NCBI GenBank assembly: GCA_963664225.1 | Contig: OY760937.1 | Span: 5,719,427-5,783,426, forward strand | Direction: 5' to 3' | Length of the DNA stretch: 64,000 nt | From: Verrucomicrobiia bacterium | Lineage (GTDB): Bacteria > Verrucomicrobiota > Verrucomicrobiia > Limisphaerales > UBA1319 | In this document: in pieces, positions 6,865-49,488 of the stretch | Position numbering within the stretch: position 1 is the first letter of the stretch | How the letters are laid out: the number at the start of each line of letters is the position of its first letter | The notes under the pieces: model-generated | Told to the model about the DNA's origin: nothing | What the model saw: the letters and a program-made list of their open reading frames with translations, nothing else | Database searches by the model: none | Translations under genes and position numbers: made by a program

Positions 6865-6874
6865 AAGCACCTGG

Positions 6875-6901
6875 GAGCCTGTTCGACGCCCGGACAGGCT
6901 C
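6875..6901. terminator. Hairpin between convergent genes (possible terminator)
   Basis: GAGCCTGTTCG-ACGCC-CGGACAGGCTC with no clear U-tract. Confidence 0.45.
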
Positions 6902-6930
6902 TCTAAATGGGACGGGAGGTCAGCAGACGA

Positions 6931-8355: not shown

Positions 8356-8512
8356 AATGACCTGAACCCATCATGGCAGAAAGCACGCGACACGAAAACC
8401 TCTATTTCACATAAATGGCGAGCTGGCTTGAAAACACTTGCGAAGCCTTTTTTTGAATGCGCGATTTTTTATGGTGTCAGAAATGCTCGATTATGCGATT
8501 CTAATCATTGAT

Positions 8513-10885: not shown

Positions 10886-11085
10886 ACAAATGGCGGTGGA
10901 GCGGGGTCAAATAGGGTGGCGGGCATCTATTCGCTTGTGTTGCAATTATGTGAAGGTTTTTTCTTGAAAATCGCAACCGAAATCGCGATTGTTCCACGGT
11001 TACGCACATTTGTGGATATCACCGGTCACTTTTTGTCCAAACTGTTGGGTTAAAGTTGGTAACCATTGAGTTCTGTTTAATCATT

Positions 11086-16773: not shown

Positions 16774-16790
16774 AATTGTTCCTCCGCGAT

Positions 16791-16827
16791 GCGCCCGGCC
16801 AGCATTAGGATGCTCCGGGCGCTTTTT
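16791..16827 (+). terminator. Intrinsic terminator
   Basis: GCGCCCGG-CC-AGCAT-TAGG-ATGCT-CCGGGCGC-TTTTT, 18 nt after the stop of the CotH-domain gene. Confidence 0.75.
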
Positions 16828-17052
16828 ATTAAGCGTGATGATGGGTTCTGTAATTGGGAAGGTGCTTGCGTGTTTCTGGTTAAAAATGCGTGAAGAGCAT
16901 CCTTCCCTGGTAACGATACTTGCCATAACAATGCGATTTGCTTTTACTGTCGGTCGTTCCAATGCAACGACGTTGAGGGTCGTAAATCGAATGCAAGCAC
17001 CGTTTTGGATGGAATTTGAGAGTGCAGGGTTAAAAATCACAGATTTTATTGT

Positions 17053-26900: not shown

Positions 26901-28517
26901 TCAGGGCTCTGGCTCTGCTAATCGTGCTTCCACAAATTCAGGTTGTGGCTCTGACCTAGGCGAAGCACAATTTGAATCGTTCTCTCTGTCATTTAAATCG
27001 TTAGAAGGTTTTCCACCCTCGTTTGAATTGGCCTTGGGATCTGATCGACGTTCCGCTTTAGGCGCCTTTACAACGGAGGATTGCGGAGCGGTCTCAGCTA
27101 TCTGCGTTTCGATCCTACCCTTACTTGGGTAAAACTCGTTAATAATTTTTCTGACCAAGGGCATCGTTACGGTGGTTTCAGACTGTTTTGCCTCATCGCG
27201 CGCTAGTTTTGCAATGTTTTCAAAGGTCTTGAGGAAGCTCTCGGCCGTGAGCGCACAAAAAGCGATATCGAGTTTATCTGCCGTATCAGCGATTTCAGGC
27301 AAATAAAACTCCACGAGATTAAGGAGGTCGGACTCAGGCAGTTTATCGGGCAGGTCGAACTCCACCCAACGGCCTTTGTGTTGTTGCATCGGATAGTGGG
27401 TCACGCGTTCAAATTTGGTGACGTCGCCGTGAGTTCCATCAAACCAATCTGGCGTAACTGCTATGACGACCGGCAGATTACGGTCGAAGAGTTGTTTCCG
27501 GACCCAATCGAGCCGGGGAGGGGAGGAATCCTTTTTAGGGGAACGCGGAATCAGAAAATGGCCCTCATCGAAGATCAGGAAAAGTCCACTTTGCTTAACT
27601 ACCTCAAAAATTTGCTGCCGTAGATTTTGGTACCCTGAGACGTGCGCTGTATGAATGCCAAGTGCTTCTGCGACCGCGATCAAGAAGCCAAGCATGTCGT
27701 TAGAATCAGGTACAGTTATCAATCTAGCCCTCCCAGGCCACATTAAGGAATATGCTTCGAGACTTTCCGACTTTCCAAATCTGGATCCACCGCGCAACAA
27801 TATCATCATGTTCGTGCGGAAGGCGATGCCGAGTATTCGGAAAACCTGCTTAGTCACGACCGTCATGACGACACGACTCTGTTTGATCTTGTCAGCTCGG
27901 CAGTCCATGAATTTAAGGATGGCCTCAATTGCATTTTCAAAATACCACGGTCCATCGCAGTCCGGCAAATTGCTGTTGCTTTCAAATCCTTGGTCAAAAT
28001 CCAAACATAATGCAGCCAGGTATTCTGGAAGTATTTCTAAGGCGACGTCTCTGCATGCGTTTCGAAAATATTCGAAGTCCATGTGGCTCGTTGCCATTTC
28101 AAGTAGTTCCCGGGGAAACAATGCCCAACTGCTCAGATGATCCATGGAGGCTTGATTATTAAAAAAGACCATTCCGGTGTCCGGATTGACGATCGACGGT
28201 CGCGCCCACTGCGCCATCTCGCTCCAGACTTGCATTCGCTCGTCAACGCCCCAATTCCGCTTGCCAAATTGGCGCATGCTAACAGTGCCGATTCTATCAT
28301 AATAATCCCGAACTAAATCTGCGGAAAGCAATTTCAAACCGCCTGTCTCCATGGACATCCCTTGTATAGACCAGAGCAATTCAAGCAGACGCGGATTCGC
28401 CTGCATCTGCCTGTACAATTTTGGAGACTTGTAAGATCTTATCGCAGCAACTTTTTGGGCTAATTGTAATGGGTCGATGCTTGTGGCGACTGCAGTCTCT
28501 ATCAGTAGATTTCGCAT
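26901..28517 (-). CDS. AAA+ transposition ATPase (MuB/TnsC-like) with long N-terminal extension
   Basis: Walker A GGSRFGKS, Walker B LIFDEGH, RLDWVR. Lies immediately downstream of the transposase. Confidence 0.8.
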   Translation of the reverse strand: MRNLLIETAVATSIDPLQLAQKVAAIRSYKSPKLYRQMQANPRLLELLWSIQGMSMETGGLKLLSADLVRDYYDRIGTVSMRQFGKRNWGVDERMQVWSEMAQWARPSIVNPDTGMVFFNNQASMDHLSSWALFPRELLEMATSHMDFEYFRNACRDVALEILPEYLAALCLDFDQGFESNSNLPDCDGPWYFENAIEAILKFMDCRADKIKQSRVVMTVVTKQVFRILGIAFRTNMMILLRGGSRFGKSESLEAYSLMWPGRARLITVPDSNDMLGFLIAVAEALGIHTAHVSGYQNLRQQIFEVVKQSGLFLIFDEGHFLIPRSPKKDSSPPRLDWVRKQLFDRNLPVVIAVTPDWFDGTHGDVTKFERVTHYPMQQHKGRWVEFDLPDKLPESDLLNLVEFYLPEIADTADKLDIAFCALTAESFLKTFENIAKLARDEAKQSETTVTMPLVRKIINEFYPSKGRIETQIAETAPQSSVVKAPKAERRSDPKANSNEGGKPSNDLNDRENDSNCASPRSEPQPEFVEARLAEPEP

Positions 28518-28629
28518 ACACCCAATCTTTAACGGGACGATTCACTCAAACTATTATTTCCGAAGTGGCATTAGAAGGTAACGATCGGGATAGATAGAAC
28601 CTGTCAAACTGCAGATCGTTTGTGGTTCC

Positions 28630-31137
28630 TTAAGTGTTTTCCAAACCATGTTGCGATTCAGATTTCGTTTGGCGCAGTTTGTCAGCTTTCTTGCGCATGT
28701 CGATCGCTTGTTCTGCACGGGATGGGTACCGCTTAACAGTTTCTTGTGGAACATGTGCCTTCGTAGCTTCGGTTTGCAACTTGCGTAAGCGGTTATCGGC
28801 CTCCTTCTTTTCGTTATTGAATATTTCATTCTCTCGGTTGTGGAATTCCCCAAACTTCTTCTCTTCCTCAGTATATTCCGCGTCTCGGACAACAGTGGAA
28901 ATTACCTCCGGTTTCAATTCGCTGAAGATTCCCTTTGCGTAAGCTCTGTGTGCTTTTTTAAGTTGTCTGATGGCATCAAGCTGCTCTGGCAAAGCAGTCA
29001 TCGCGGAGGCTTCAACCTCTTGCACAGAAAAGTATTCCTTGTGCTGCCTGTCATAAACCGTGAGTAATTCTGGTAGTTCGATATTGTAAAATGCCAAAAC
29101 TGGTCTCCCGATAATTCGACCCGTGTGCCCGTTGTAATAGAGATGTGGAATTCCTCGAACCTTTATCAATATCCCCTCTTGCCGCACAGTGACGTATTTT
29201 CGGTGAGTGGAGAGAATGTAGCGAGCCTCATTAGGCAGCTTTTTGAGAGTGCTCGTCCGGAATTCATTAGCCCATGCCTCAGATGGTGAATATCCATCGA
29301 GCATTTTACCGTTTTGGGGATCGCGGGCGAAATCATTGAGCACTGACGTAATTCTGCTTACCCAATCTGTCATGGTCGGGAATTGCATCACCGCATCAAG
29401 CTCCCCTCTGCGGGCTCTTGCAAGAAGGTCCTGCATCCTTTCATAACAATCGGTCTGTTCGTTAAAACCAACAAAACCAGGGATGGCCTTCATCTTGTTT
29501 TGCAGGATGAGTAACAGGCCCTCGATTGGTTTGGCGCGTGGTGTTGTTGCGTGGCGCACTTCAAGTTGCATTCCAACGCCACGAAGTCCACTTTCAGTTT
29601 CACGCCAGGGAACGGGCATCCCGCGGCGTCGATCACCGCTGACCAAGCGCGAGGCCCAGACTCCTTGCTCAAAATAATAACCCATGCGCGGTAGTCCGAC
29701 CTTATCGTGGACCTTCAGGGCAAGATTCCGAATGTGTTCGCCATTGTATTTTCCCGGAATCAGCAGGAACTCAAGGGGATAGCCGGTGCGCAGGTCGTTC
29801 ATCAGAAGACATTCACCCCTCATAATTCCCCATCCTCCGTCTGCCAATCGCACCCGGAAATAGTGATTCCAAGTCACATCGTCCGCACAAAACCAATCTC
29901 CAGGTCTGACGCCAGACCAATCTCGCGGGGTATAGGGACCTCGCATCGTGGCCTCCCACGGGCCGTGCAGGAGTGGCAAGCACATCTCAACATCGGGAGT
30001 AATTTTATCCCTCACGGACAGCGGCACATTGCTCTTGTCATCGCGCGGAGCGAATCTATATCGCTTGCAGAATTCATCGCTCAATTCTCCGCGCTCGCGG
30101 AGTTCCCGGTACGCAAGCGATTCATTCCCGCTCAGTTCGATGGCACGGTTCCGGATCTTCTTGAGATCTGCTGTGAAATCTGATTTGCAGAAGTTACCGG
30201 ACGTTAGGCAACGCCGATCCTGCAGAGCTTCCGGATTGCGATTGCCCTCTCGCCACTGAATAATTTTCTCTTCAAATCGCCGCCTGAGGCTCTTGGCTGA
30301 GCCGCACAGCGTGCCAGGCGGAAATGCTTTTGACAGGTAGCACAGCAAAGATGCCTTGATACGGTGCCGTTTGCGATTGCCTTTTGGCGAATCCGTGAGT
30401 GCATCGCTTAGTTTCTCATAGTGCCTGAATACGGCGCTCCACAAGTATTTCTTTTCCTCTGGTGTGGGTTTTTGACGGTCCTCAGTCGACTCGATTATTT
30501 CATCGAGATCTCTATGAATGTACTCCATCTCACGAACGAGCCGCGACGACTTCTGGGTATAAAAAGCCCGATCGTCAAGGTATATCTCCGGTGCTATCCA
30601 ATTTTCCGCCCCGCCATCCCGGTCGATTGAGCGATCGATCAACCGCCGCCAGTGTCGATTGGAAATTGTGTAACCCATATGCTTTTGGAAATTCTCCAAG
30701 CCGAGTTGCTCAATCTGACTCGCGGGAGCGGTCGAGGCATACCAACCGTTTAATGTTGGTGCCAAGGCCTTCTGGAGTTTTAGCGCTTTCTCCCGCCAGA
30801 ACGGTTGCAATTGGGCCCACGCCACTGGTGGAACCCACGGCTCTCTCGGCATGCTCGCAATGTATCGAATTCCATCCTCATATTTGCGTTCTACCCCTCG
30901 ACGCGTCACCCGCAATTGCCAGTCCAATGGAAGCGTTTGAAAGGCCCAAGCCGCTGTTTCCTTTCCTTGGACCGTGACATTTTTGGTTGGGACGACACGC
31001 TCCAAGCCGTAATAGACTGCGCGTCGGGTTATGCCTGTTGCGCGAGAAATCTGCACGACAGTGAACAAATTGTAGGCCTCAGCTGGTTCGCTCATTTTCT
31101 TTTTTGGACTGTGTATGGCCCCGATCCGGGCGTTCAT
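28630..31137 (-). CDS. Mu-like DDE transposase (MuA/TnsB-like)
   Basis: N-terminal HTH (FTVVQISRATGITRRAV), PGDWFCADDVTW, DLRTGYPL, VGLPRMGYYFEQG, PRAKPIEG, PGFVG and a C-terminal beta-rich Mu-transposase-like region. An alternative start at MSEPAE is possible. Confidence 0.82.
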   Translation of the reverse strand: MNARIGAIHSPKKKMSEPAEAYNLFTVVQISRATGITRRAVYYGLERVVPTKNVTVQGKETAAWAFQTLPLDWQLRVTRRGVERKYEDGIRYIASMPREPWVPPVAWAQLQPFWREKALKLQKALAPTLNGWYASTAPASQIEQLGLENFQKHMGYTISNRHWRRLIDRSIDRDGGAENWIAPEIYLDDRAFYTQKSSRLVREMEYIHRDLDEIIESTEDRQKPTPEEKKYLWSAVFRHYEKLSDALTDSPKGNRKRHRIKASLLCYLSKAFPPGTLCGSAKSLRRRFEEKIIQWREGNRNPEALQDRRCLTSGNFCKSDFTADLKKIRNRAIELSGNESLAYRELRERGELSDEFCKRYRFAPRDDKSNVPLSVRDKITPDVEMCLPLLHGPWEATMRGPYTPRDWSGVRPGDWFCADDVTWNHYFRVRLADGGWGIMRGECLLMNDLRTGYPLEFLLIPGKYNGEHIRNLALKVHDKVGLPRMGYYFEQGVWASRLVSGDRRRGMPVPWRETESGLRGVGMQLEVRHATTPRAKPIEGLLLILQNKMKAIPGFVGFNEQTDCYERMQDLLARARRGELDAVMQFPTMTDWVSRITSVLNDFARDPQNGKMLDGYSPSEAWANEFRTSTLKKLPNEARYILSTHRKYVTVRQEGILIKVRGIPHLYYNGHTGRIIGRPVLAFYNIELPELLTVYDRQHKEYFSVQEVEASAMTALPEQLDAIRQLKKAHRAYAKGIFSELKPEVISTVVRDAEYTEEEKKFGEFHNRENEIFNNEKKEADNRLRKLQTEATKAHVPQETVKRYPSRAEQAIDMRKKADKLRQTKSESQHGLENT

Positions 31138-31370: not shown

Positions 31371-31571
31371 TTACATTGGCAGCTTCCGTCGGCTGTTTGC
31401 CCTGCGATGAAATACGCCGTCGATTGAGGGGTGCCGGGTCAGCTTTGCTTGTATGGGCGCGACTGCGTGGAGCCGACATAAATCTCCGAAAACTGCGCAA
31501 ATTGAGCCGCGCGGGAAATCATGCCACCGAGTTGGCGAATCCCCTTCGGGGCGTTTCGGCTTTGCTTCCAT
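31371..31571 (-). CDS. Small hypothetical ORF in the Ner/Cro position (uncertain)
   Basis: ATG 31571, MEAKPKRPEGDSPTRWHDF..., divergent from the repressor and upstream of the transposase. No recognisable motif. Confidence 0.25.
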   Translation of the reverse strand: MEAKPKRPEGDSPTRWHDFPRGSICAVFGDLCRLHAVAPIQAKLTRHPSIDGVFHRRANSRRKLPM

Positions 31572-31586
31572 ATGGCGGATGTGGTA

Positions 31587-31595
31587 TGGTATAAT
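31587..31595 (+). promoter_or_regulatory. Extended -10 promoter for the XRE gene
   Basis: TG-G-TATAAT, 27 nt upstream of ATG 31623. ATAATGCAA is repeated at 31591 and 31620 (possible operator). Confidence 0.55.
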
Positions 31596-31622
31596 GCAAT
31601 AGATACAGCGAAATACAAAATA

Positions 31623-32015
31623 ATGCAAATTAAAAATGACTTTTTTCAAACGATTCGGCTGTTAAGGGTTCAGCGAGGGTTGTCGCAAGTCGAATTCGCT
31701 CGTTTTTTGGGCGTTACCCCGGCTGCGGTATGCAATTGGGAAAAGGGGCTCAGTAGCCCAGCCGAAAAACGGCTGGCGGCGATTGCTCAAAAATTGGGAG
31801 TGCCCGTCGAGTCGCTGCTTTCCATGTCGGTCGGTAACGGTCCGGGGAAAGTTCAGGAGATTCCACCGTGTTCTTCGCCGTTCCTGATTGCGTCAACCGT
31901 CGATGACCGGGGCAAGCGCCAAAAGCAGGCGCGCATGCTGGAGAAATTACTCACTCAGTTCACGGGCCTTGAATTTCGGATCGATAATCCCGCGATTGGA
32001 TCAGGGAAACGGTGA
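31623..32015 (+). CDS. XRE/Cro-C1 family HTH repressor
   Basis: IRLLRVQRGLSQVEFARFLGVTPAAVCNWEKG...LAAIAQKLGVPVESLL. Start moved to ATG 31623. Confidence 0.9.
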   Translation: MQIKNDFFQTIRLLRVQRGLSQVEFARFLGVTPAAVCNWEKGLSSPAEKRLAAIAQKLGVPVESLLSMSVGNGPGKVQEIPPCSSPFLIASTVDDRGKRQKQARMLEKLLTQFTGLEFRIDNPAIGSGKR

Positions 32016-34362: not shown

Positions 34363-35199
34363 CTAAATTGTCCGTGGTTCTAATAATGTGAGAACACCTC
34401 GGCTCCGCAGGCGAATAGCCGATTCCATGAATATTTCGTCAAATTGGCTGCCTTCGGCGACACCTGTAAACCAGGCGCTGGCAACCGTTCCGTTCTGATG
34501 CACCCTTCCCAACGTCAGGGTGTTATCAAGCATCGCTAGGCCCGTGGCTGAATCAGCGGGTATCACTTCATTGGTCAACTTCTTAACCCATTGATACCCT
34601 CGTGACTTCAGTTCTGGGGAAATATCCCACCAGGGTTTGCCAGCATCGCGAAACATAACTATGGCACAGGGTGTTTTGCTTATGGCGGTGAAACGCAGAG
34701 CTGCACTCTGAATGGAAACGCTAAACGTGCTGGCAATATCGACTATGCCTCGCAGCCCAGGTGAAACCTCCGTCAGTGCTTTGCGGAATTCCTGGCCAGG
34801 CATCAGAAGATTTGCAGAGAAGAGATTTGCCTCCACCTCTATAGGACTGTCCGCTGGATGTTCCGTAAAGGAAAAATGCGGTGGCAGGCCTGCCAAGAGT
34901 GCATTGCGGTGTTCATCGATGAAAAGGTGGCCCAGTTCGTGGGCAACTGTAAAACGAGCCCGAGGAGAGTTACAGGGCTGTCCCCGGGTCGTGTTGCAGT
35001 ATATGTGAAATTTGGAACTTCTATGTTCCAACAACCCGTCAAAGGCGTTTCCATAGTCGCCATAAGAGAGGGTTACACCAGATGCATTGACAATTGCATC
35101 CAAAAAAACTTGACGTTCTCTGGAATGGGTTTGCCAAACGTCCTCTGCCAACTCCGAGATGAATATATGACGTTCCCGAGGTAGGTCAATAAGCGCCAT
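34363..35199 (-). CDS. ImmA/IrrE-family Zn metallo-endopeptidase (CapP/PprI-like: peptidase + HTH + GAF-like C-terminus)
   Basis: FDGLL, RARFTVAHELGH (HExxH), EVEANLFSANLLMP, IASTFSVSIQSAALR and a C-terminal extension. Real start MALIDLP at 35199 (278 aa) overlaps the stop of the upstream ORF. Confidence 0.9.
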   Translation of the reverse strand: MALIDLPRERHIFISELAEDVWQTHSRERQVFLDAIVNASGVTLSYGDYGNAFDGLLEHRSSKFHIYCNTTRGQPCNSPRARFTVAHELGHLFIDEHRNALLAGLPPHFSFTEHPADSPIEVEANLFSANLLMPGQEFRKALTEVSPGLRGIVDIASTFSVSIQSAALRFTAISKTPCAIVMFRDAGKPWWDISPELKSRGYQWVKKLTNEVIPADSATGLAMLDNTLTLGRVHQNGTVASAWFTGVAEGSQFDEIFMESAIRLRSRGVLTLLEPRTI

Positions 35200-35587
35200 T
35201 GTTGATTTGTTCCTTTGCCCTGGCCCGATCCGCATCCATACGCTTACGGATTTCCTCGGTAATTTCGCCGCCGTTCCTAGCGGCCATGGCGAGTTTTTCG
35301 AGATCCTGCTCAACTTGAAGTGAACTAATTTTAGAACCAATTCTCGTCGTGGTCGGAAATTCCACAATATTCTCCTCGCTCTGGCGCAGGAGTTGGCGAA
35401 ACTTCTCGGTGTCCGGGGTTGGGACTCCATTCATGTCTATGCTAGCCTTCAGTGAGGCGACATCTTCCGTGATACGCGGAAAGAGATAACCATCATCCCG
35501 AAGTGCAGCATACACAGCTGCTTCGAACTCAGCGTCCGAAAGCTCTTTCGGCTGTTCACTATTCGAGTGGGTCTTCATATGTTGCAT
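35186..35587 (-). CDS. Small acidic hypothetical protein; putative anti-sigma factor / peptidase substrate
   Basis: 133 aa, lying between the sigma and peptidase genes and overlapping the latter. Motifs GYLFP and LAMAARNGGEI..EIRKRM..DR. No HTH or TM segment seen. Confidence 0.7.
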   Translation of the reverse strand: MQHMKTHSNSEQPKELSDAEFEAAVYAALRDDGYLFPRITEDVASLKASIDMNGVPTPDTEKFRQLLRQSEENIVEFPTTTRIGSKISSLQVEQDLEKLAMAARNGGEITEEIRKRMDADRARAKEQINNGAY

Positions 35588-35608
35588 TATGTTAAATTAT
35601 TTATGTTA

Positions 35609-36319
35609 TTAAGCGTGTGTTTGGATGAATGCTTTAGCTTGGTCTCTAAGACGCTTGCGACGAACCCGAAGACTGGACTCGGTTAATCCGTATTCTCTAC
35701 AAATGCCCTCACGGATATCGTCATCAATTACCGATTCCCCATTTTCGGGATCCCAGAACTCAGCTGTGACCGTCAGAATTTCCCGGTCCTTTGGAGACAA
35801 AGTTTCCAGGAATCTTAGAACCGCAGCTTTTCGGCTGGTCGGGACTTGCTCTGCCGTCGCCTGACGTTTCTCCTCTATATTTTCCAGCCACTCGGTGTCC
35901 TCGTCCGAGCACCGCACGGCTGGACGTCTATTTTCCGCACGCAGGCTGTCCAAAAACAGGTTTTTCATTATCCGGAACAACCAAGCCAGCACTTGTGCGG
36001 TGCTCTGGCTTGGATCGGTGCACACAAAATGTTCGGCCTCCCGGTAAGCCTTAAGAAACGCAGCGTTCACAAAACTCTCTGCCGATTCCCCGAATGTCTC
36101 TTGGCGGTATTTGATGCACCAAGCCAGCAAAAAGCGGGCATGGCGCCGGTGTAGCTCTTCACAAGCCTTAAGGGCCAATTCCTCATCGGTGTCCTTAAAT
36201 GCCATGTACGTGACCAGTCCGTCGTCAGACTCGCGCTCGAGTTCGGGGTGAGAGCAAGTCACCAATCCGGTGACGGGTTCCGGTTCTTCCAATATGTTGT
36301 TTTGGGCGACGTCTTCCAT
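35609..36319 (-). CDS. ECF-type (group 4) RNA polymerase sigma factor, divergent
   Basis: Region 2-like ACEELHRRHARFLLAWC...AESFVNAAFLKAY...LAWLFRIMKNLFLDSLRA and region 4-like LETLSPKDREIL...ICREYGLTESSLRVRRKRLRDQAK. Confidence 0.8.
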   Translation of the reverse strand: MEDVAQNNILEEPEPVTGLVTCSHPELERESDDGLVTYMAFKDTDEELALKACEELHRRHARFLLAWCIKYRQETFGESAESFVNAAFLKAYREAEHFVCTDPSQSTAQVLAWLFRIMKNLFLDSLRAENRRPAVRCSDEDTEWLENIEEKRQATAEQVPTSRKAAVLRFLETLSPKDREILTVTAEFWDPENGESVIDDDIREGICREYGLTESSLRVRRKRLRDQAKAFIQTHA

Positions 36320-36471
36320 CAAGATTATAACGTTTGGCCGTTACATTGTGCTTATATGGTCATTACTTCTTCTCTTATACGTCACCTCCTGAGCCATGAA
36401 ACGCTAAATCGTTATGACGGTGAAGGAGGAGCAAAGAGCTTCCGAGACAACCTAACGAAAGACCAAATATT

Positions 36472-36852
36472 ATGAAAGAAAATGGAAGATCGCCAGAGGC
36501 GGCTGAAGTGGTGGAAAAAGACCTCAAGAAAATTGGTGAACCTGTGGAAGAAATCGAAAAACTAGAAGAAGAGGTCGATCTTGAATCGTACGCCAAGGCT
36601 GGGAAACAGCCACCGAGGGCAAAGCGGTATCGCATCCGTGTGGATGACCGCTACTTTGTGGTACACCAGGCGTGCATGAAAGGCATTGAAATCTTGGTTC
36701 TGGCAGGAAAAACGCCACCAGAGAGCTTCATTTTAACCCAAAAGTCCAAAGGTGGTGCTTTGCACACGATTGAACTGGGCGATATCGTCGACTTCACCAA
36801 ATCCGGGATTGAACGTTTCAATACACTGCCCCGCCAGGTCCAAGAGGGTTAA
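36472..36852 (+). CDS. Bacterial ubiquitin-like protein (multiubiquitin-type beta-grasp) ending in Gly
   Basis: DLESYAKAGKQPPRAKRYRIRVD...GIEILVLAGKTP...VDFTKSGIERFNTLP. C-terminus ...QVQEG*. First gene of the E2/E1/JAB operon. Confidence 0.85.
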   Translation: MKENGRSPEAAEVVEKDLKKIGEPVEEIEKLEEEVDLESYAKAGKQPPRAKRYRIRVDDRYFVVHQACMKGIEILVLAGKTPPESFILTQKSKGGALHTIELGDIVDFTKSGIERFNTLPRQVQEG

Positions 36853-36855
36853 TCT

Positions 36856-37245
36856 ATGCGCCGCGAATTTACTCTGCCGGAGGACGACGTTGAGCACCTA
36901 GATACGCTTGGCGTGAATTGGGAGACGCTCCGTGATCCCAGCGGGCAATGGCTTCTGCTCCATGGGTTTGCGTTTCCATCGGGCTACAATCACCCGAATG
37001 GGTCCGTTGCCATACAGATCCCGGGAAACTATCCGGTTTCTCCGCTGGACATGGCATATTTCTTTCCTCACCTTCAGCGTCTGGATGGGCAACCGCTCCG
37101 GCAGACAGAATGCATGATGCAGGTGGATGGCAAATCTTGGCAGCGATGGTCCCGACATTACACTTGGGTGCCTGGGCAGCACAACCTCGGCACTCACATC
37201 GTTCTAACGCGCCATTGGCTGGAGCAGGGCGTGGGGAGAGGATGA
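36856..37245 (+). CDS. Prokaryotic E2/UBC-fold protein (Prok-E2_E-like)
   Basis: LPEDDVEHL...WLLLHGFAFPSGYN...IQIPGNYPVSPLDMAYFFP...WQRWSRH...W.PG..NLGTH. Confidence 0.8.
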   Translation: MRREFTLPEDDVEHLDTLGVNWETLRDPSGQWLLLHGFAFPSGYNHPNGSVAIQIPGNYPVSPLDMAYFFPHLQRLDGQPLRQTECMMQVDGKSWQRWSRHYTWVPGQHNLGTHIVLTRHWLEQGVGRG

Positions 37246-38627
37246 AAACTCCCATGATGACTACCTTAAGAATGACGGAGGAACAACGGTGTCAACTCCA
37301 GCGGCACCTTTTTCCCGGCGACGGTCAGGAAATGGTAGCACTCGCCCTGTGCGGTTCCAGTCTCGCGACTGACCGACAAGCGTACTGCGTCCATGAAATT
37401 ATCGAAATTCCGAGGGATGCCTGCACTTTACGGACTGCCGTAACTGTTCAGTGGGATGTGCATGTCTTAATTCCGGTGCTGGAAAAGGCCCTGAAGCGGG
37501 GGTTGTGGGTGCTGAAAATTCATTCCCACCCGGGAAATTACGAGCGATTTTCTCCACAAGACGACCAAACGGATACAGATCTGGCGAAGGGAATCGGGTC
37601 TATTTTGGATCGTGAATCCTGCCTTATCAGCGCGTTTATGATGCCGGCAGGCAAGATTTATGGCCGCATAGTCAACACAACTGCGGGCTTCACCGCAATT
37701 GATCAAATAATGGTGGTGGGTGACACGGTGTCTTTCATGCACGTGAATTTGCTTAATTTGGGGAATGACAAGGATCTGCGCACCAGGCAGGCGTTCGGCG
37801 ATGGAACAACCAATCTGCTGCGGTCGCTTTCGGTAGGCGTGGTTGGGTGTTCAGGGACGGGAAGCTGGGTCGTCGAACTTCTAGGAAGGTTGGGCGTTGG
37901 TCGGCTTATATTAGTGGATCCGGATACAATTGAGAAAAAGAACCTCAACCGGATTGTAAATTCGACCGCAAAAGACCTCGATCGGCCCAAAGTGCACGTT
38001 TTGGCCGATTCAGTTCGGGCAGTGGGATTTGGAACCATCGTCGAAACTCACGCTAAAGAAATAGCTTGCGCCGGGGTCGTTAAGGCTCTGGCTTCTTGCG
38101 ATTTCCTTTTTGGGTGCATGGATTCAGCTGATGGCCGGGAAACCTTAAACCGCATTGCGACCTATTACTTGCTCCCTTATGTGGATATTGGTGTGCGTTT
38201 GGATGCGGATGGACATGGCGGCGTTGAGCAAATATGCTGTGCCCTTCACTATCTTCTCCCAGGCGGCTCGAGTTTGTTATCTCGTGGTGTGATCACAGCG
38301 AAACAGGTTGAGGCGCAGTCGTTACAGCGCACCAACCCGGAACAATATGACTCCCGGCATAACGAGGGATACGTAAAAGGTGTGGCGGTGGACCGTCCAG
38401 CAGTAGTCAGTATCAATGGGTTTATCGCAACCCACGCTGTCAACGAGATGTTAGCGCGCCTGCACCCCTTCCGGCGGGATTCCAACGAGGAATTTCGTTA
38501 TCAACTGTTCTCGCTCTGTGATGGCGCCTGGCTACGGCAGTCAGACGGTCCGCCCTGCCAATTTCTGTCCCGCTATGTTGGACGTGGCGATGCTCAACCG
38601 CTGCTTGGAAATCCCGCATTATCATGA
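37242..38627 (+). CDS. JAB/JAMM peptidase - ThiF/E1 adenylyltransferase fusion
   Basis: ATGA overlap with the E2 gene; 461 aa. JAB motif E...IHSHPGNYERFSPQD (HxH-x7-S-x2-D). E1 motifs VGVVGCSGTGS, VDPDTIEKKNLNR, PKV, FGCMDS..GR. Confidence 0.88.
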   Translation: MKTPMMTTLRMTEEQRCQLQRHLFPGDGQEMVALALCGSSLATDRQAYCVHEIIEIPRDACTLRTAVTVQWDVHVLIPVLEKALKRGLWVLKIHSHPGNYERFSPQDDQTDTDLAKGIGSILDRESCLISAFMMPAGKIYGRIVNTTAGFTAIDQIMVVGDTVSFMHVNLLNLGNDKDLRTRQAFGDGTTNLLRSLSVGVVGCSGTGSWVVELLGRLGVGRLILVDPDTIEKKNLNRIVNSTAKDLDRPKVHVLADSVRAVGFGTIVETHAKEIACAGVVKALASCDFLFGCMDSADGRETLNRIATYYLLPYVDIGVRLDADGHGGVEQICCALHYLLPGGSSLLSRGVITAKQVEAQSLQRTNPEQYDSRHNEGYVKGVAVDRPAVVSINGFIATHAVNEMLARLHPFRRDSNEEFRYQLFSLCDGAWLRQSDGPPCQFLSRYVGRGDAQPLLGNPALS

Positions 38628-38998
38628 AACGGACTTTCAGAGGTTGGCTTGCTGATTGGCTGCGCTCAAATCGAAATGAACCAGTGCGCTTTCGGACAGA
38701 ACGAACGGATCGGATGCTGAGGTCGTTTCAGCCTAATATCATTTACCAGATTGGCGACGAAGATTGTAGTTGGGCTGCCGCCTTGCGTTGTCCCTGCGGT
38801 TGTGGAGACGTTATCCAACTGAGTCTTGTCAGGGATGCCAGCCCGTCGTGGCGAATACAGCAGCGCCGGAATGGGGAGGTAACCTTGTTGCCGTCGGTAT
38901 GGAGAACCGTTGGTTGTCGAAGCCACTTTATTATTTATCGCAGTCGCGTTGTTTGGTGCTCGGATGAATCGCCCGCGATCGACCAGTGGCGGTGGTGA
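38624..38998 (+). CDS. DUF6527-family Cys/His-rich protein
   Basis: ATGA overlap. CPCGCGDVIQLSL...W...TLLPSVWRTVGCRSHFII...VVWC. Confidence 0.8.
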   Translation: MKRTFRGWLADWLRSNRNEPVRFRTERTDRMLRSFQPNIIYQIGDEDCSWAAALRCPCGCGDVIQLSLVRDASPSWRIQQRRNGEVTLLPSVWRTVGCRSHFIIYRSRVVWCSDESPAIDQWRW

Positions 38999-41154: not shown

Positions 41155-41907
41155 ACAGTCAGGCTGGATGACAAGCCCAATACACAATGAACCGTCACAA
41201 GCATCGTTAAACCAATAAGCCAAAGATGCTGATCAGGCTTAAACCAAAAGGTATGCAATCGGTTGCCTCGCTTTTGAATCGGGGCACACGGACAATGTCG
41301 ATTGCCGGAGTAGAGGCGGTGGCTAAATCATTCGTGTTATGTGAACGAAACACGGTAAACCCGGTGTTCCGTCTTCTCGGAGGCAAGGTGCGCCGCAAGG
41401 TCCGCCCATGGAGTGCCGGGCAGAGGATAGCTGGAACAAACCAAAGCCATTCGATAACAGAATGGATAGGGGCGGCAACATGGCCCCGCCGCGAAAGCGG
41501 GCAGACTTCCAGCAGGTCGAGCGTCACGAGAGCGTTGGCAGAACCTTTTTGTGGAGGAAATCGCAAATGAACGTGGATTTATCCATGTGTGCATCCTCCG
41601 ACCTGATACAGCACTGGGACCAGATCGACTGGAACCGGTGTCGACGCCAGGTAAAAAGGCTGCAAGCCCGTATCGTGAACGCCACACGGGATAGACGCTG
41701 GGGCAAGGTGAAAATCTTGCAACGGCTGCTGACCCACTCGTTTAGCGGCAAAGCCTTGGCTGTAAGCGAGTGACGGAAAATAACCGTCATGATTGGACCG
41801 GCCCTGCCCGTAGCAGGGCTTTGCAACGGCGTGAGCCGTATGAGGCGAAAGTCTCCCGTACGGTTCTTAGGGGAGAGGGTGGCCGAAAGGCCATCCTCTT
41901 ACCCGAC
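41155..41907 (+). mobile_element. Degenerate group II intron (IIB/chloroplast-like): 5'-truncated, RT ORF internally deleted, intact domains V and VI
   Basis: DV GAGCCGTATGAGGCGAAAGTCTCCCGTACGGTTC (41833-41866), DVI ending ACCCGAC (41907), and the RT N-terminus upstream. No GTGYG 5' end found; the left coordinate is approximate. Confidence 0.88.
41567..41785 (+). pseudogene. Group II intron reverse transcriptase N-terminal fragment
   Basis: GGAGG RBS. MNVDL...HWDQIDWNRCRRQVKRLQARIVNATRDRRWGKVKILQRLLTHSFSGKALAV, then a frameshift into (R)VTENN; the rest of the RT is deleted. Confidence 0.88.
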
Positions 41908-44275: not shown

Positions 44276-45928
44276 GTGCGGAAGATGTTGGATAAATGTC
44301 TGCCGGGATGTCCGGGAATTGATAACAAGGGTGCAAAGCCCTCCTCAACGGAGGGTGCGCCCATGGGGTGTCGTGTTGTGGACGAATTGAGTCTGCTCTT
44401 CGATATTTCCTACACGCTCGAAAGCAGTTCGGATTTGCGAGACGTGATCCGGCCCGTGTTGTTGAAAATGGCCGAGGTGCTGGGCATGAAGCGCGGCACC
44501 ATCACCATACTGAATCGGGATCAAAACGAAGTCAGCATCAGCGAGGCGATTGGACTGCCCGACGGGCATAGCCAGCAGGACTATTTGCAGGCCTGCCGCG
44601 AATTGATCCAGCAGGTGATCACCACGCGCCAGGCGGTGGTGGTTGCAGATATTTCCAGGGAGCCGATGCTCAAGCAACGCTGGGAGCAGGAAAAGAAACT
44701 GGATCCCGCGCTCGCACGGGCAGCCTACATTTGCGTGCCCATCAAATTTGGCGAAGAGGTTGTCGGCGCGTTGAGCGTGGAAAGGCTCCTGGACAAGAAT
44801 GCGGGCCTGTCGTCCGATCGGAGGCTTCTTTCGCTCATTGCCAACGTCATTGCGCAGACCGTTCATTTTCACCGGATCACCCAGGAAAAGGTTGAGGCCC
44901 TCCAGCGCGAAAACAACCGGTTGCAGGAGCAGATCAAAACCAGTTTTCGACCGCCGAACATGATCGGCAATTCGAGCGCCATGCGTTCGGTTTACCGCCA
45001 TATCGAGCAGGTGGCCAACAGCACCACCACGGTGTTGATTCGCGGGGAAAGCGGTGTGGGCAAGGAACTCGTTGCCCGCGCCCTTCACGACCAAAGCCAG
45101 CGCAAAGGCAGGGCATTCGTGAAATTCAACTGTGCCGCGTTGCCGGAGTCGATCATTGAAAGCGAATTGTTCGGCCATGAGAAAGGGGCGTTTACGGGCG
45201 CCGTCGCCATGCGCAAAGGCCGCTTTGAAGTGGCGGATGGCGGCACGATATTTCTAGATGAAATCGGCGATATTTCCGCGACCACGCAGGTGAAGTTGTT
45301 GCGCGTCCTGCAGGAAAAGGAATTTGAGCGCGTGGGCAGCCACACACCCATTCGCTGCAATGTGCGCGTCATCACCGCCACCAGCCGGAACCTTGAGGAA
45401 ATGATCGAGCAGGAAAAATTCCGCGCCGATCTATATTACAGGCTCAATGTATTTCCGATATACGTTCCACCGTTGCGAGATCGAAAATCCGACATGCTCC
45501 TGCTGGCGGACTATTTTGTGGAGAAGTATTCCAAACTCAATCAGAAGTCCGTTCGCCGCATTTCAACAGCGGCGATCGACCTGCTGACGAGCTATCACTG
45601 GCCGGGTAATGTGCGCGAACTGGAGAACTGCATGGAACGCGCGGTCTTGCTCTGCCAGGACAAGTGTATCGAAGCCCATCACCTGCCGCCAACGTTACAG
45701 AAGAAGGATGCGTCCGAGAAAAAGTCCGGCGGCACTCTCGATGCCACCATTTCTGCACTGGAGTATGAACTCATTGTGGCCGAACTGAAAGTCTGCGATG
45801 GCAACATGGCCGCCGCTGCGCGTAACCTGGGCCTGACCGAACGCCAGATGGGCCTGCGCGTAAAACGGTTTGGCATCGACTTCAAACGCTTCCGCCAAAA
45901 CAGTCTGGACGAGGCTACATCCGCGTAG
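44276..45928 (+). CDS. nifA: NifA-type sigma54 activator (GAF-AAA+-HTH)
   Basis: GAF domain, GESGVGKE, ESELFGHEKGAFTGA, FLDEIG, WPGNVRELEN, C-terminal HTH. Directly upstream of nifH. The true start may be 44285 or 44363. Confidence 0.88.
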   Translation: MRKMLDKCLPGCPGIDNKGAKPSSTEGAPMGCRVVDELSLLFDISYTLESSSDLRDVIRPVLLKMAEVLGMKRGTITILNRDQNEVSISEAIGLPDGHSQQDYLQACRELIQQVITTRQAVVVADISREPMLKQRWEQEKKLDPALARAAYICVPIKFGEEVVGALSVERLLDKNAGLSSDRRLLSLIANVIAQTVHFHRITQEKVEALQRENNRLQEQIKTSFRPPNMIGNSSAMRSVYRHIEQVANSTTTVLIRGESGVGKELVARALHDQSQRKGRAFVKFNCAALPESIIESELFGHEKGAFTGAVAMRKGRFEVADGGTIFLDEIGDISATTQVKLLRVLQEKEFERVGSHTPIRCNVRVITATSRNLEEMIEQEKFRADLYYRLNVFPIYVPPLRDRKSDMLLLADYFVEKYSKLNQKSVRRISTAAIDLLTSYHWPGNVRELENCMERAVLLCQDKCIEAHHLPPTLQKKDASEKKSGGTLDATISALEYELIVAELKVCDGNMAAAARNLGLTERQMGLRVKRFGIDFKRFRQNSLDEATSA

Positions 45929-45961
45929 GTTCCCCATATAAAGCCACCTTAAGGTAGCTTT
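45915..45961. promoter_or_regulatory. Palindromes upstream of the nifH promoter (candidate activator sites or terminator)
   Basis: CTAC-N6-GTAG (45915-45928) and CCAC-N6-GTAG within AAAGCCACCTTAAGGTAGCTTT (45940-45961). Confidence 0.4.
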
Positions 45962-46082
45962 TTCGTTCCTTCATTGTTTCAGCGCCCTGCCTTCGTCCAG
46001 CCGCATAATTCCGCACAATACCCCTGTCTTTATTGCCTGATATTCACTTCCGGCTGCCGCGTAACGTGGCTGAACAGGCCGC

Positions 46083-46097
46083 TGGCACACAAGCTGC
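46083..46097 (+). promoter_or_regulatory. sigma54 promoter of the nifH operon
   Basis: TGGCACACAAGCTGC, GG-N10-GC, 71 nt upstream of nifH. Confidence 0.82.
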
Positions 46098-46153
46098 GTA
46101 GTGAGGTGGCGGTGAGCGAACAGGCCACCGGCAAAGTCAGCCAGCAGAAATGA

Positions 46154-46993
<840 letters not shown>

Positions 46994-47028
46994 ACGATTC
47001 ACAACAAAACAATTAACTCAACAAATAA

Positions 47029-47358
47029 ATGGCAACATTGGTTCAAGCAGTCGTTCGCCCGGAAAAAGTTCACGACGTCATGAAGTCCCTTCTCGAAGCC
47101 GGTTTCCCGGCAGTGACGAAAATGGATGTATTCGGACGTGGCAAACAACGCGGTCTCAAGGTGGGCGAAATCACCTATGACGAATTGCCTAAGGAATTGC
47201 TCCTGGTGGTCGTGCCGGACACCGACAAGGAACTCGTGGTGGAGACCATTGTGAAAACGGCGCGCACCGGCGAAAAAGGCACTTTCGGAGATGGAAAGAT
47301 ATTCGTCTCGAAAGTGGAGGAAACCTACACCGTCAGCAGCGGGGCGAAGGACGCATGA
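47029..47358 (+). CDS. nifI1: PII-like nitrogenase regulator NifI1
   Basis: PII fold (VVRPEK, GRGKQRGLKVGEITYDELPK, GTFGDGKIFV), located between nifH and nifD. Confidence 0.92.
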   Translation: MATLVQAVVRPEKVHDVMKSLLEAGFPAVTKMDVFGRGKQRGLKVGEITYDELPKELLLVVVPDTDKELVVETIVKTARTGEKGTFGDGKIFVSKVEETYTVSSGAKDA

Positions 47359-47732
47359 AAAACATCATCGCCATCATCCGCATGAACAAGGTCAACGCCA
47401 CCAAGACTGCGTTGATCGATGCCGGGTTCCCAGCATTCACCGTCCGCAAGGTCCTGGGACGAGGCAAGGGCAATGTGGATTTCCGGGTGATTCACGGGGC
47501 TGAAGCGGGCGCTCCGGAAGCCATCGCCCGCTTGAAGGACGACGGTCCAATGCTCATTCCCAAGCGGATGATGACCATTGCCGCTGAGGATGCGGCCGTG
47601 CCAAAGATCGTCGAGGCCATCATCAAAACAAACCGGACCGGCCAGAAGGGCGATGGGAAAATATTCGTTCTGCCCCTGGAGGAAGTGGTTCGCATCCGCA
47701 CCGGCGAGCGCGATGCCGCCGCGGTGAACTAA
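47355..47732 (+). CDS. nifI2: PII-like nitrogenase regulator NifI2
   Basis: IIRMNKVNATK, GRGKG, PKR, GDGKIFVLP..RIRTGE. ATGA overlap with nifI1. Confidence 0.92.
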   Translation: MKNIIAIIRMNKVNATKTALIDAGFPAFTVRKVLGRGKGNVDFRVIHGAEAGAPEAIARLKDDGPMLIPKRMMTIAAEDAAVPKIVEAIIKTNRTGQKGDGKIFVLPLEEVVRIRTGERDAAAVN

Positions 47733-47753
47733 ACCATCAACACAAATATTCCT

Positions 47754-49466
47754 ATGCCCGAAACAACTGACGTTACTCCGAATCCCTTGCCTTCCGCAGA
47801 GCAAGTGCGGGAGGAGATGTTGAAGATCTATCCGCCGAAAACGCGCAAAAAGCGTTCGAAGCAGATGATCGTCAACGATCCTGAAGCCCCGCCGGAAGTG
47901 GCCGCCAACACCCGCACCGTGCCCGGCATCATGACTCAACGTGGATGCACGTATGCTGGCTGTCGCGGTGTGGTCATGGGACCGATTTACGATCTGCTGC
48001 AAATCACTCATGGACCGATTGGCTGCGGCTATTACGCCTGGATGACGCGTCGCAATCTGGCCCGTCCGAAGCCCGGCGAACCGAATTTCATGCAATACTC
48101 CATGTCCACGGACATGCAGGAGGATCAGATCATTTTCGGCGGCGAGAAGAAGTTGAAGCAGGCGATCCAGGAGGCTTACGACCTGTTCAAGCCCAAGGCC
48201 ATCGCGATCTTATCGACCTGTCCGGTGGGTCTCATCGGGGACGATGTTCACGCCGTGGCTCGCGAGATGAAGGAGAAGCTTGGCATCAACGTCATGGGTT
48301 TTAGCTGTGAAGGCTACAAGGGCGTGAGCCAATCCGCCGGCCATCACATCGCCAACAACGGCGTTTTCAAAAACATCATCGGGCTGAATGACGAGGCGGA
48401 CGAGGCGGAGTTCAACATCAACATCCTGGGCGAATACAACATCGGTGGGGACGCCTGGGAAATCGACGGGCTGCTGCGCAAGTGCGGCATTCATGTCACC
48501 GCGACGCTGAGCGGCGACGTCAATTACACCCAGGTCACCAAGGCCCACACCGCGATGCTCAACGTCGTGATGTGCCACCGTTCCATCAACTACATCGCGG
48601 AAATGATGGAGAAGAAGTTCGGCATTCCCTGGATCAAGGGCAATTTCATTGGCGCGGAATCCACCGCCAAGTCGTTGCGCAAGATCGCAAAGTATTTCGA
48701 GAGCAAGGAACTTTCCGATCGCGTGGAGCAGGTCATCGCCCTGGAAATGCTCAAGCTCAAACCGATCCAGGCGGACATCGCCACCCGCTGCAAAGGCAAG
48801 AAAGTCGCGCTCTTTGTGGGCGGTTCACGGGCGCATCATTACCAGGATTTGTTTCGCGACATCGGCATGGAAATCGTTTCCGCTGGTTACGAATTTGCCC
48901 ACCGGGATGACTACGAAGGCCGCAAGGTTCTGCCGAGCATCAAGGTGGACGCAGATAGTCGTAACATCGAAGAACTGCACGTTGAGGCCGATCCCGCGCG
49001 ATTCAAGCCGCGAAAGTCACCAGAGCAACTGGCCGCGCTCGCGGCGGGCGGATTCACCTTCAAGGATTACGAGGGAATGATGGCGGAGATGAAAAAGGGC
49101 GTGCTGGTCATTGATGACATCAGCCATCACGAGATCGAAAAGCTGATCGAGATTTACAAGCCCGACATCATTGGCTCGGGCATCAAGGACAAGTATGTCA
49201 TCGAAAAAATGGGCATCCCCTGCAAACAACTGCACAGTTACGACTACGGTGGTCCCTATGCCGGATTCGGCGGGGCGGTCAACTTTTACCGCGAGATCGA
49301 CCGGATGTTGAGCACGAAGGTCTGGAAATACGTCGTGCCGCCGTGGGAAAAAGAACCGCAACTCACCGCCAGCTTTGCCAATCCCGCAAAACGCAATGGC
49401 GTGAAGCGCGAAACCGAAGCCAGGTCATTTATCCGCCAGCATGCGGCCTTAACCGACGAAGTCTGA
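47754..49466 (+). CDS. nifD: Nitrogenase MoFe protein alpha chain (Group II type)
   Basis: P-cluster Cys motifs RGCTYAGC, HGPIGC, STCPVG. FeMoco ligands VMCHRS and LHSYDY. Group II insertion DDYEGRKVLP...DYEGM. Confidence 0.97.
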   Translation: MPETTDVTPNPLPSAEQVREEMLKIYPPKTRKKRSKQMIVNDPEAPPEVAANTRTVPGIMTQRGCTYAGCRGVVMGPIYDLLQITHGPIGCGYYAWMTRRNLARPKPGEPNFMQYSMSTDMQEDQIIFGGEKKLKQAIQEAYDLFKPKAIAILSTCPVGLIGDDVHAVAREMKEKLGINVMGFSCEGYKGVSQSAGHHIANNGVFKNIIGLNDEADEAEFNINILGEYNIGGDAWEIDGLLRKCGIHVTATLSGDVNYTQVTKAHTAMLNVVMCHRSINYIAEMMEKKFGIPWIKGNFIGAESTAKSLRKIAKYFESKELSDRVEQVIALEMLKLKPIQADIATRCKGKKVALFVGGSRAHHYQDLFRDIGMEIVSAGYEFAHRDDYEGRKVLPSIKVDADSRNIEELHVEADPARFKPRKSPEQLAALAAGGFTFKDYEGMMAEMKKGVLVIDDISHHEIEKLIEIYKPDIIGSGIKDKYVIEKMGIPCKQLHSYDYGGPYAGFGGAVNFYREIDRMLSTKVWKYVVPPWEKEPQLTASFANPAKRNGVKRETEARSFIRQHAALTDEV

Positions 49467-49488
49467 CCCAATAGCAAAGGAAATATTT

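Follow-up and report, generated by a model that had tools for sequence, protein, structure and literature searches.

A CapP-type peptidase, a candidate soluble anti-sigma factor and a sigma factor divergent from a ubiquitin-like conjugation operon

How might a bacterial defence operon be controlled when a CapP-type peptidase is encoded beside it, but the helix-turn-helix (HTH) repressor that such a peptidase would cut is replaced by a sigma factor and a small protein of no named family? This question is raised by a locus in a Verrucomicrobiia bacterium (UBA1319; assembly GCA_963664225.1, contig OY760937.1, positions 5,719,427-5,783,426 of the forward strand). The window analysed here is this whole stretch of 64,000 nt, and all coordinates are window positions. 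In the region 34363-36471, reading of the open reading frames (ORFs) gives three minus-strand genes, for an extracytoplasmic function (ECF)-type sigma factor, a 133-aa acidic protein (the partner) and a CapP-type M78 peptidase, and the trio is divergent from a Bub operon, which encodes ubiquitin-like conjugation proteins, on the plus strand. We favour, with some reserve, the reading that the trio is a CapH/CapP-type DNA-damage switch with a sigma factor and a soluble anti-sigma factor in place of the HTH repressor, which would turn the defence operon on instead of lifting its repression. The first-pass annotation of this DNA had proposed that the peptidase cuts a soluble anti-sigma factor and so frees the sigma factor. 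All our computations fit that proposal (a conserved trio, a predicted clamp on the sigma factor and a CapH-like end of the partner), although it overlooked the release step that would have to follow a cut at the Ala-Ala-Arg (AAR) segment.

The features of the three genes are as follows.

34363-35199, minus strand: CapP-type M78 zinc peptidase, 278 aa (PADLOC capP, Pfam Peptidase_M78, PDB 7t5t/3dte)
34927-34941, minus strand: codons of the HExxH active site, peptidase residues 87-91 (sequence reading)
35186-35587, minus strand: 133-aa acidic partner, candidate soluble anti-sigma factor (ORF, family alignments, models)
35384-35548, minus strand: partner residues 14-68, the predicted sigma-binding half, with three helices and the motifs LRxxGxLFP and VPTPD..F..LL (predicted complex, alignments)
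35201-35323, minus strand: partner residues 89-129, two-helix C-terminal module, CapH-like (AlphaFold2 helices, PADLOC capH fragment match)
35276-35293, minus strand: LAMAAR, partner residues 99-104, candidate CapP cut site with A103/R104 as the putative scissile pair (cross-phylum invariance)
35609-36322, minus strand: ECF-type sigma factor of 236-237 aa, extended N-terminally by an acidic stretch of about 50 aa (Pfam, TIGR02937, family profile)

The ORFs confirm the tight operon originally described: 21 nt separate the sigma and partner ORFs, and the peptidase ATG overlaps the partner stop by 14 nt. The sigma start codon is TTG, with an alternative ATG at 36319, and the database copy of the partner begins at the methionine at 35578, which gives 130 aa. 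A longer peptidase reading of 355 aa from 35430 was rejected, as it overlaps the partner ORF and the homologue matches start at MALI...

Judged by profile span, the peptidase is a CapP, a type of protein in which an HExxH domain is followed by a linker and a GAF-like C-terminal domain. Its match to PADLOC capP (E 3.5e-43) covers profile positions 5-239 of 242, as expected of a full-length homologue, and Pfam Peptidase_M78 is found at E 2.7e-12. A sequence search of the PDB returns CapP (7t5t, E 3.1e-9, residues 88-225) and IrrE (3dte, E 7.9e-5). The stretch from HExxH to the third ligand region contains no cysteine, and the peptidase therefore has no cysteine switch.

The partner has no Pfam or NCBIfam family. 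A word-based search gives 38 relatives of 80-151 aa, all hypothetical proteins, and a profile search of 1.84 billion cluster representatives extends the family to 721 clusters at E<=0.001, with 194 at E<=1e-10; the best 150 of the 721 are 82-143 aa long, save one of 199 aa. Three conserved pieces emerge from the family alignments. LRxxGxLFPxTxEEV lies near the N-terminus, a proline-rich turn plus helix follows (VPTPD..F..LL in the clade of the window) and ENLAxAARxGxxIxxEIxxxMxxDR is C-terminal. In partner numbering, L29, F36, P37, V55-P58, F63 and L67 are invariant or near-invariant. L99, A100, A102, A103, R104, N105 and G106 show no variation in the cross-phylum alignment A2, R104 is also invariant in alignment A1 and kept in at least 90% of A4, and the family-wide consensus of this segment is [LMF]-x-x-A-A-R. 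Two family members, P0013 and P0021, carry an internal duplication of VPTPD..FRQLLRQ (A1 columns 70-90), the segment predicted to lie on sigma region 2.

With a deep alignment, AlphaFold2 models confident helices at 18-31, 40-49, 60-72, 89-105 and 111-129, and a disordered linker between 72 and 89. The mean predicted local distance difference test (pLDDT) score is 80, compared with 61 when close homologues alone are used, and the predicted template modelling (pTM) score is 0.32. A pTM this low despite a pLDDT of 80 indicates two tethered modules rather than one globule, with their mutual placement undefined.

What the two modules resemble is central to the argument. The isoelectric point (pI) of the partner is 5.0 overall and 4.7 for the N-terminal half. 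A Pfam scan of 48 diverse family members finds no HTH family at E<=0.1, the N-terminal 75 residues alone have no PADLOC match, a PDB sequence search with the partner and with the family profile gives nothing better than E 0.9, and a Foldseek search of the pLDDT-80 model against the PDB gives no match at E<=0.001. The description of the partner as a non-HTH protein in the first-pass annotation thus stands, and Pfam, PDB sequence and Foldseek searches likewise reveal no recognisable anti-sigma domain of the ASD or zinc-binding type. The C-terminal 58 residues alone match capH positions 66-95 over residues 92-122, weakly (E 1e-3). In the portion of the CapH study available to us, the C-terminal domain of CapH (residues 67-107) forms two helices in a V, and CapP cuts the first of these helices at F82/R83, with R83A uncleavable (Lau et al. 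2022, 10.1101/2022.04.27.489752). The early comparison of LAMAARNGG with the tails of repressors paired with such peptidases accords with a predicted CapH-like C-terminal module in which AAR is invariant. Our reading of the sequences is that the partner has the CapP-facing C-terminal module of CapH, including the invariant first-helix Arg, and that its HTH has been swapped for something else. By analogy with F82/R83, LAxAAR is likely to be the CapP cut site, most probably before the invariant Arg, and the protease probably cuts the partner.

The N-terminal half is predicted to contact the sigma factor. By its sequence, the sigma factor is an ECF protein of group 4, containing regions 2 and 4 only. 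It scores 46.1 bits against the curated sigma70-ECF model TIGR02937 (cut-off 42.9) over residues 53-230, Pfam Sigma70_r2 matches at E 1.5e-7, and the region 2 and region 4 motifs are kept across its family. Co-folding it with the partner, from alignments of 31 sigma family members and 48 partner family members, gives a score of 0.84, and the best of three controls reaches 0.00. That mark is reached by 116 of 157 solved complexes and by 2 of 215 mismatched pairs, counts that apply only approximately, as the alignments used here were our own. The co-fold runs share at least 72% of contacts, and the partner pLDDT is at least 63. In the predicted complex, partner residues 14-68 contact sigma residues 50-122 (region 2) and 149-233 (region 4); the family-invariant F36, P37, P56, F63 and L67 are among the contacts, and the C-terminal half of the partner lies outside the interface. 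The N-terminal half is thus predicted with high confidence to clamp between regions 2 and 4. This position is the inhibitory pose of solved sigma/anti-sigma pairs, and the model suggests that the partner probably holds the sigma factor inactive. For a sigma/anti-sigma pair, then, adjacency of the genes is observed and binding between regions 2 and 4 is predicted.

If the trio works as a unit, its genes should travel together, and two sets of loci show that they do. The first set comprises 22 loci that the family profile picked out of genomes and metagenomes; a CapP gene stands after the partner in 21 of them, and the exception ends at a contig edge. The sigma factor of the window finds a counterpart upstream of the partner by tblastn in 16. 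Of the other six loci, L027 and L028 are cut at the contig start, L012 has only 253 nt upstream, L013 and L029 have a divergent sigma factor by ORF reading, and L030 was not examined. Twelve of the 22 loci contain all seven genes, the trio and the Bub operon together. Two observations concern reading frames in this set. The CapP match is split in two frames near residue 30 in L010 (7383-8214) and L020 (6238-7069), by a frameshift or an assembly error, and the identical numbers suggest that the two are probably the same DNA filed twice. The sigma gene of the metagenomic L029 (6308-6968) opens with an ATG at 6308, meets a TGA at 6458 and resumes in another frame at 6456, by a frameshift or a sequencing error.

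The second set comes from even samples of two phyla, in which the partner family occurs in 6 of 401 Verrucomicrobiota genomes (this one included) and 16 of 401 Bacteroidota genomes; 16 kb were annotated around the 21 places outside this genome. A sigma factor of one family precedes the partner at all 21. Pfam finds 12 of these sigma factors, and the other nine are matched by a profile of the Pfam-positive members (E 6e-37 to 9e-15). CapP follows at 20 places, 18 of them by Pfam. For the other two of the 20, L074 and L075, tblastn finds a full-length CapP. In these two Bacteroidota loci the complete trio (around 6700-9200) stands directly after rbfA-truB-ribF on the same strand, with no obvious defence operon facing it.

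The exception, the Bacteroidota locus L083, is informative: its partner keeps the N-terminal sigma-side motifs, and both the LAxAAR module and CapP are gone, a joint loss that fits two separable modules. The C-terminus of this partner (L083:7404-8249, minus strand) is a different domain of about 190 aa, unrelated to the LAxAAR module, and the sigma clamp may here be coupled to another kind of input. This domain matches C-terminal parts of the PADLOC models for DarG and for Type I methyltransferase and specificity proteins, and the second gene downstream encodes a caspase-family protein (Peptidase_C14).

The expectation that the trio would be conserved and face varied defence operons also holds. 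At the 21 places it faces a Bub-type operon nine times, a YukD-type ubiquitin-like protein plus JAB (Bil-like) once, a metallo-beta-lactamase with an E2-E1 fusion once, and a cyclic-oligonucleotide-based antiphage signalling system (CBASS) with Cap15 or patatin effectors four times, so that a recognisable conjugation or CBASS-type operon is faced in 15. SWIB/FRG genes are faced once and a DUF1508 gene once, and four places have no clear divergent partner. This variety of faced operons argues that the module is portable.

The DNA between the operons was compared by an intergenic alignment of 12 related loci and a scan of 34 loci. It contains a directional motif of about 20 nt twice in mirror image, one copy toward each divergent operon, at every related locus aligned.

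36323-36471, no strand: shared divergent control region, 149 bp (ORF boundaries)
36324-36345, minus strand: motif arm facing the sigma operon, TGTAACGGCCAAACGTTATAAT, running from 36345 down to 36324 and ending 4 nt short of the sigma ATG (intergenic alignments)
36397-36417, plus strand: motif arm facing the Bub operon, TGAAACGCTAAATCGTTATGA, about 55 nt ahead of the BubA ATG (intergenic alignments)

The Bacteroidota equivalent is TGTCACGCTT...GTTAT / GGTAT. Across loci the arms lie between about 1 and 62 nt apart, and the sigma start codon follows the motif at a nearly constant distance. Both arms contain TGTAAC/TGAAAC plus CGTT, with AAC and CGT only 7 nt apart; about 17 nt past the first element comes GTGA(A/T)G, which is weakly conserved. 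The spacer of the motif is non-palindromic and reads the same way toward either operon; the two copies in L011 share a one-sided change, TGTAATG, without a matching change in the other half-site. The oriented spacer and this one-sided change argue for a directional element and not a symmetric operator. Sequence alone, however, does not decide between promoter and operator.

Three promoter assignments were considered and rejected: a standard -35/-10 pair, a promoter reaching across the arms, and a sigma-70 promoter built on the TATAAT between the arms in the closest relatives of the window. With arm spacings of about 1-62 nt, and no TATAAT in the L065-L068 group, none of the three is consistent across loci. 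A genome search for TGWAACG-N6-CGTT gives six matches, two of which are the arms themselves, compared with three for the reversed control, and so provides no evidence for a wider regulon in this genome. Downstream of the Bub-facing arm (36418-36455), and also in L009, L017, L023 and L065, a conserved GTGAAGG-like stretch is followed by a short G+C-rich inverted repeat whose sequence differs by locus; it is possibly a hairpin in the 5' untranslated region of the Bub transcript.

These features suggest the following sequence of events for a CapH/CapP-type switch with a sigma factor as its output. At rest, the N-terminal half of the partner would sit between sigma regions 2 and 4 and keep the sigma factor off RNA polymerase. 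CapP, presumably activated by single-stranded DNA as its homology with studied CapP suggests, would cut within the CapH-like C-terminal module, with the bond ahead of the invariant Arg as the likeliest site. Release of the sigma factor would follow, either through lost oligomerisation of the C-terminal module or through degradation of the remaining fragment. Free sigma factor would transcribe from both mirror-image motifs, toward the Bub operon and toward its own operon, and the latter copy would provide both feedback and re-synthesis of the anti-sigma factor.

Several points weigh against this model. One is that a cut at AAR leaves the sigma-binding residues 14-68 intact, so that release needs a further step. 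The motif, with 7 nt rather than 16-17 nt between its elements, misfits a standard sigma promoter; ECF promoters are typically autoregulated, with AAC at -35, CGT at -10 and a spacing of 16-17 nt. The dyad AACG-N6-CGTT lies inside both arms, and in L081, from Bacteroidota, the arms fuse into a single perfect palindrome that looks like the operator of a dimeric repressor. The co-folding score is the model's own confidence, and the pose may have been learned from the many solved sigma/anti-sigma complexes. Finally, the partner and all 27 of its close homologues match PADLOC capH at about 1e-6 (for the partner E 2.9e-6, residues 22-121 against profile positions 8-94), a CBASS-linked family member matches at 2.3e-13, and proteins of this kind were evidently included under CapH by those who described it. 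The match at 2.3e-13 makes it probable that the capH model was built partly on such proteins. The model also picks up ordinary XRE proteins in every one of 14 control genomes, and 10 places in this genome, through the HTH part of the profile (positions 3-68), and is therefore not specific.

The missing release step could be supplied in two ways. One possibility is that the C-terminal module oligomerises as in CapH and that its loss weakens sigma binding. The other draws on RseA/RseP/ClpXP and RsiW/RasP, in which the cut anti-sigma fragment is pulled off the sigma factor by ClpXP via an exposed Ala-Ala end. A cut before R104 would leave a fragment ending in ..EKLAMAA, a near copy of the genome's own transfer-messenger RNA (tmRNA) tag, ANEELALAA, and thus an ssrA-like end. 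On this analogy, a single cytoplasmic cut at A103/R104 would expose a degron of the ssrA type, and ClpXP-like unfoldases would then pull the anti-sigma factor off the sigma factor. The sigma factor would read a non-standard promoter, TGTMACG-N7-GTTATG, whose upstream and -10-like elements are one helical turn closer than usual, and its message would be leaderless; with CGTTAT as the -10, the sigma mRNA would begin at or beside its start codon. The trio would then be a portable module that passes a damage signal to a sigma factor ahead of Bub, Bil, metallo-beta-lactamase and CBASS operons. We regard this more specific version as doubtful.

The palindromic features and the capH matches could instead mean that the partner is a true CapH, a DNA-binding repressor whose very divergent or degenerate HTH occupies the dyads until CapP removes it, with the sigma factor as an added output or helper. 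Lau et al., in the text accessible to us, place capH and capP 'alongside' a sigma factor, and residues 18-67 of the partner can be laid loosely on the XRE helix pattern by eye. Yet an acidic protein in whose family none of 48 members shows a Pfam HTH match, and whose N-terminal half is without a PADLOC match, makes a poor candidate for such a repressor. The directional motif with its one-sided change in L011, the constant company of the sigma family (21 of 21 places) and the confidently predicted sigma complex also speak against this explanation, which we judge unlikely. The product of an XRE HTH gene at 31521-32015 was also considered as the true CapP substrate, and set aside because inspection of 13 further long loci revealed no such gene close to the module.

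Predicted binding is silent on its sign, and the partner, which shares a transcript with the sigma factor, could be a positive cofactor or chaperone that supports its stability or its recognition of an unusual promoter-like motif; CapP cleavage would then shut off or tune expression. This is quite unlikely, as the pose buries the region 2 and region 4 surfaces in the classical inhibitory manner, and cleavage turns expression on in every studied relative, namely CapP/CapH, IrrE/DdrO and ImmA/ImmR (Lau et al., partial text). Very unlikely, in our estimate, is a third arrangement, in which the sigma-like protein is a DNA-binding regulator made of sigma domains that occupies the twin motif together with a co-repressor, the partner, until CapP dismantles the complex. 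The 7-nt spacing of AAC and CGT, which misfits holoenzyme geometry, would suit such a regulator, and many family members fall under Pfam thresholds, including the 9 of 21 without a Pfam match. Against this, the sigma factor of the window scores above the curated cut-off of TIGR02937 from region 2 through region 4, and the motifs of both regions are kept in its family.

The operon on the other side of the control region was correctly described in the first-pass annotation as encoding a ubiquitin-like protein, E2, JAB/E1 and DUF6527. Pfam finds all of these families, and the Type I Bub gene set is complete.

36472-36852, plus strand: BubA, ubiquitin-like protein (Multi_ubiq, Pfam E 4.4e-12), C-terminus ..QEG
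36856-37245, plus strand: BubB, E2-like (Prok-E2_E, Pfam E 4.1e-33)
37242-38627, plus strand: BubCD, JAB peptidase-E1 fusion of 461 aa, its ATG overlapping the BubB stop (ThiF 1.4e-27, Prok-JAB 5.2e-4)
38624-38998, plus strand: BubE (DUF6527, Pfam E 1e-19)

The early remark that the module lies among decayed insertion sequences and remnants of defence genes finds some agreement in the part of the surroundings inspected: a lone N-terminal piece of a reverse transcriptase (RVT_N, 121 aa) at 41408-41773 is consistent with decayed mobile DNA, and a number of short ORFs have no family. At 26901-31137 on the minus strand, just upstream of the XRE gene, an 835-aa protein without a Pfam family stands beside a 538-aa AAA_22 ATPase, and the two could be part of a mobile element at the border of the island. 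On the other side, a GAF/sigma-54 activator (550 aa) followed by two nitrogenase component 1-type oxidoreductase genes, at 44276-50862, indicates that the island abuts a nif-like cluster. Farther away, 8438-19377 encodes three very large proteins of secreted type with many Lamin Tail Domains; CotH, PA14 and chitobiase C-terminal domains are present as well in one of them, of 1905 aa. Elsewhere in the same genome are two ordinary pairs of HTH protein and M78 peptidase, ImmR/ImmA-like (C1:2082134-2082974 and 219914-220753), so that classical and sigma-linked designs coexist.

If the proposed switch is correct, a DNA-damage protease has been rewired to release an activator, which would change both the tightness of silencing and the sharpness of induction of the guarded operon. 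It would also explain an unexplored subset of CBASS and Bub operons that carry a sigma factor, and define a new soluble anti-sigma family of at least 721 sequence clusters. A sigma factor, an anti-sigma factor, a protease and a 20-nt promoter would make a small, portable and orthogonal switch, and would offer a handle for inducing Bub operons, whose biological role is still unknown according to their authors (PMC11601596, as far as its text was accessible).

How does the trio compare with known systems? Its genes resemble CapH/CapP in the full-length peptidase family, in regulator genes placed divergently upstream of a defence operon, in a substrate gene immediately 5' of the peptidase gene, and in a predicted two-helix C-terminal module with an Arg in the first helix. 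It differs in that the substrate is without a detectable HTH, a dedicated sigma factor is always present, the N-terminal half is predicted to bind the sigma factor and not DNA, the output would be activation, and the peptidase has no cysteine switch. The RseA/RsiW cascades, our model for the degron idea, also depend on a cut anti-sigma factor, but theirs are membrane proteins cut at site 1 and site 2, whereas the trio would be cytoplasmic with a single proposed cut. In the IrrE(PprI)/DdrO and ImmA/ImmR systems, an M78 peptidase likewise cuts the C-terminal part of a regulator after DNA damage (Lau et al., partial text); there the substrates are XRE HTH repressors and a sigma factor is not part of the system.

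The first-pass annotation knew of no description of this logic, a view that needs correction. A single mention in the searchable text of Lau et al. (10.1101/2022.04.27.489752) states that 24 CBASS systems encode capH and capP beside a sigma70-family sigma factor. CalpL/CalpT/CalpS of type III CRISPR (10.1101/2024.05.08.593097) is, in the accessible text, also a switch of protease, anti-sigma and sigma factor, but CalpL is a SAVED-Lon protease activated by cyclic oligoadenylate and not an M78 peptidase, and the likeness drawn here is one of description. In Myxococcus xanthus, the ECF sigma/anti-sigma pair DdvA/DdvS controls CBASS and CRISPR defence genes (PMC11506125); unlike the partner, its anti-sigma factor is transmembrane, and the portion of the text seen names no M78 peptidase. 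With CalpL/CalpT/CalpS and DdvA/DdvS in print, the general logic of a protease that frees an ECF sigma factor in defence is known. We found no description in the literature of an M78/CapP peptidase acting on an anti-sigma factor, and CapH/CapP, CapW and CapK/CapS are all described, in the texts as far as accessible, as repressor-based controllers of immune operons.

The guarded operon itself matches the Type I Bub operon in content and order (ubiquitin-like protein, Prok-E2_E, JAB-E1 fusion, DUF6527 protease), as given in the accessible text of Ye et al. 2024 (PMC11601596), where CapH plus CapP occur at 168 of 544 Bub operons. Unlike Type I operons with a BubAB fusion, the ubiquitin-like protein and E2 are separate here; fused forms occur in the related L069, L073 and L083. 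Set against all of these systems, the trio is a real, widespread and mechanistically unexplored branch of the CapH/CapP regulators.

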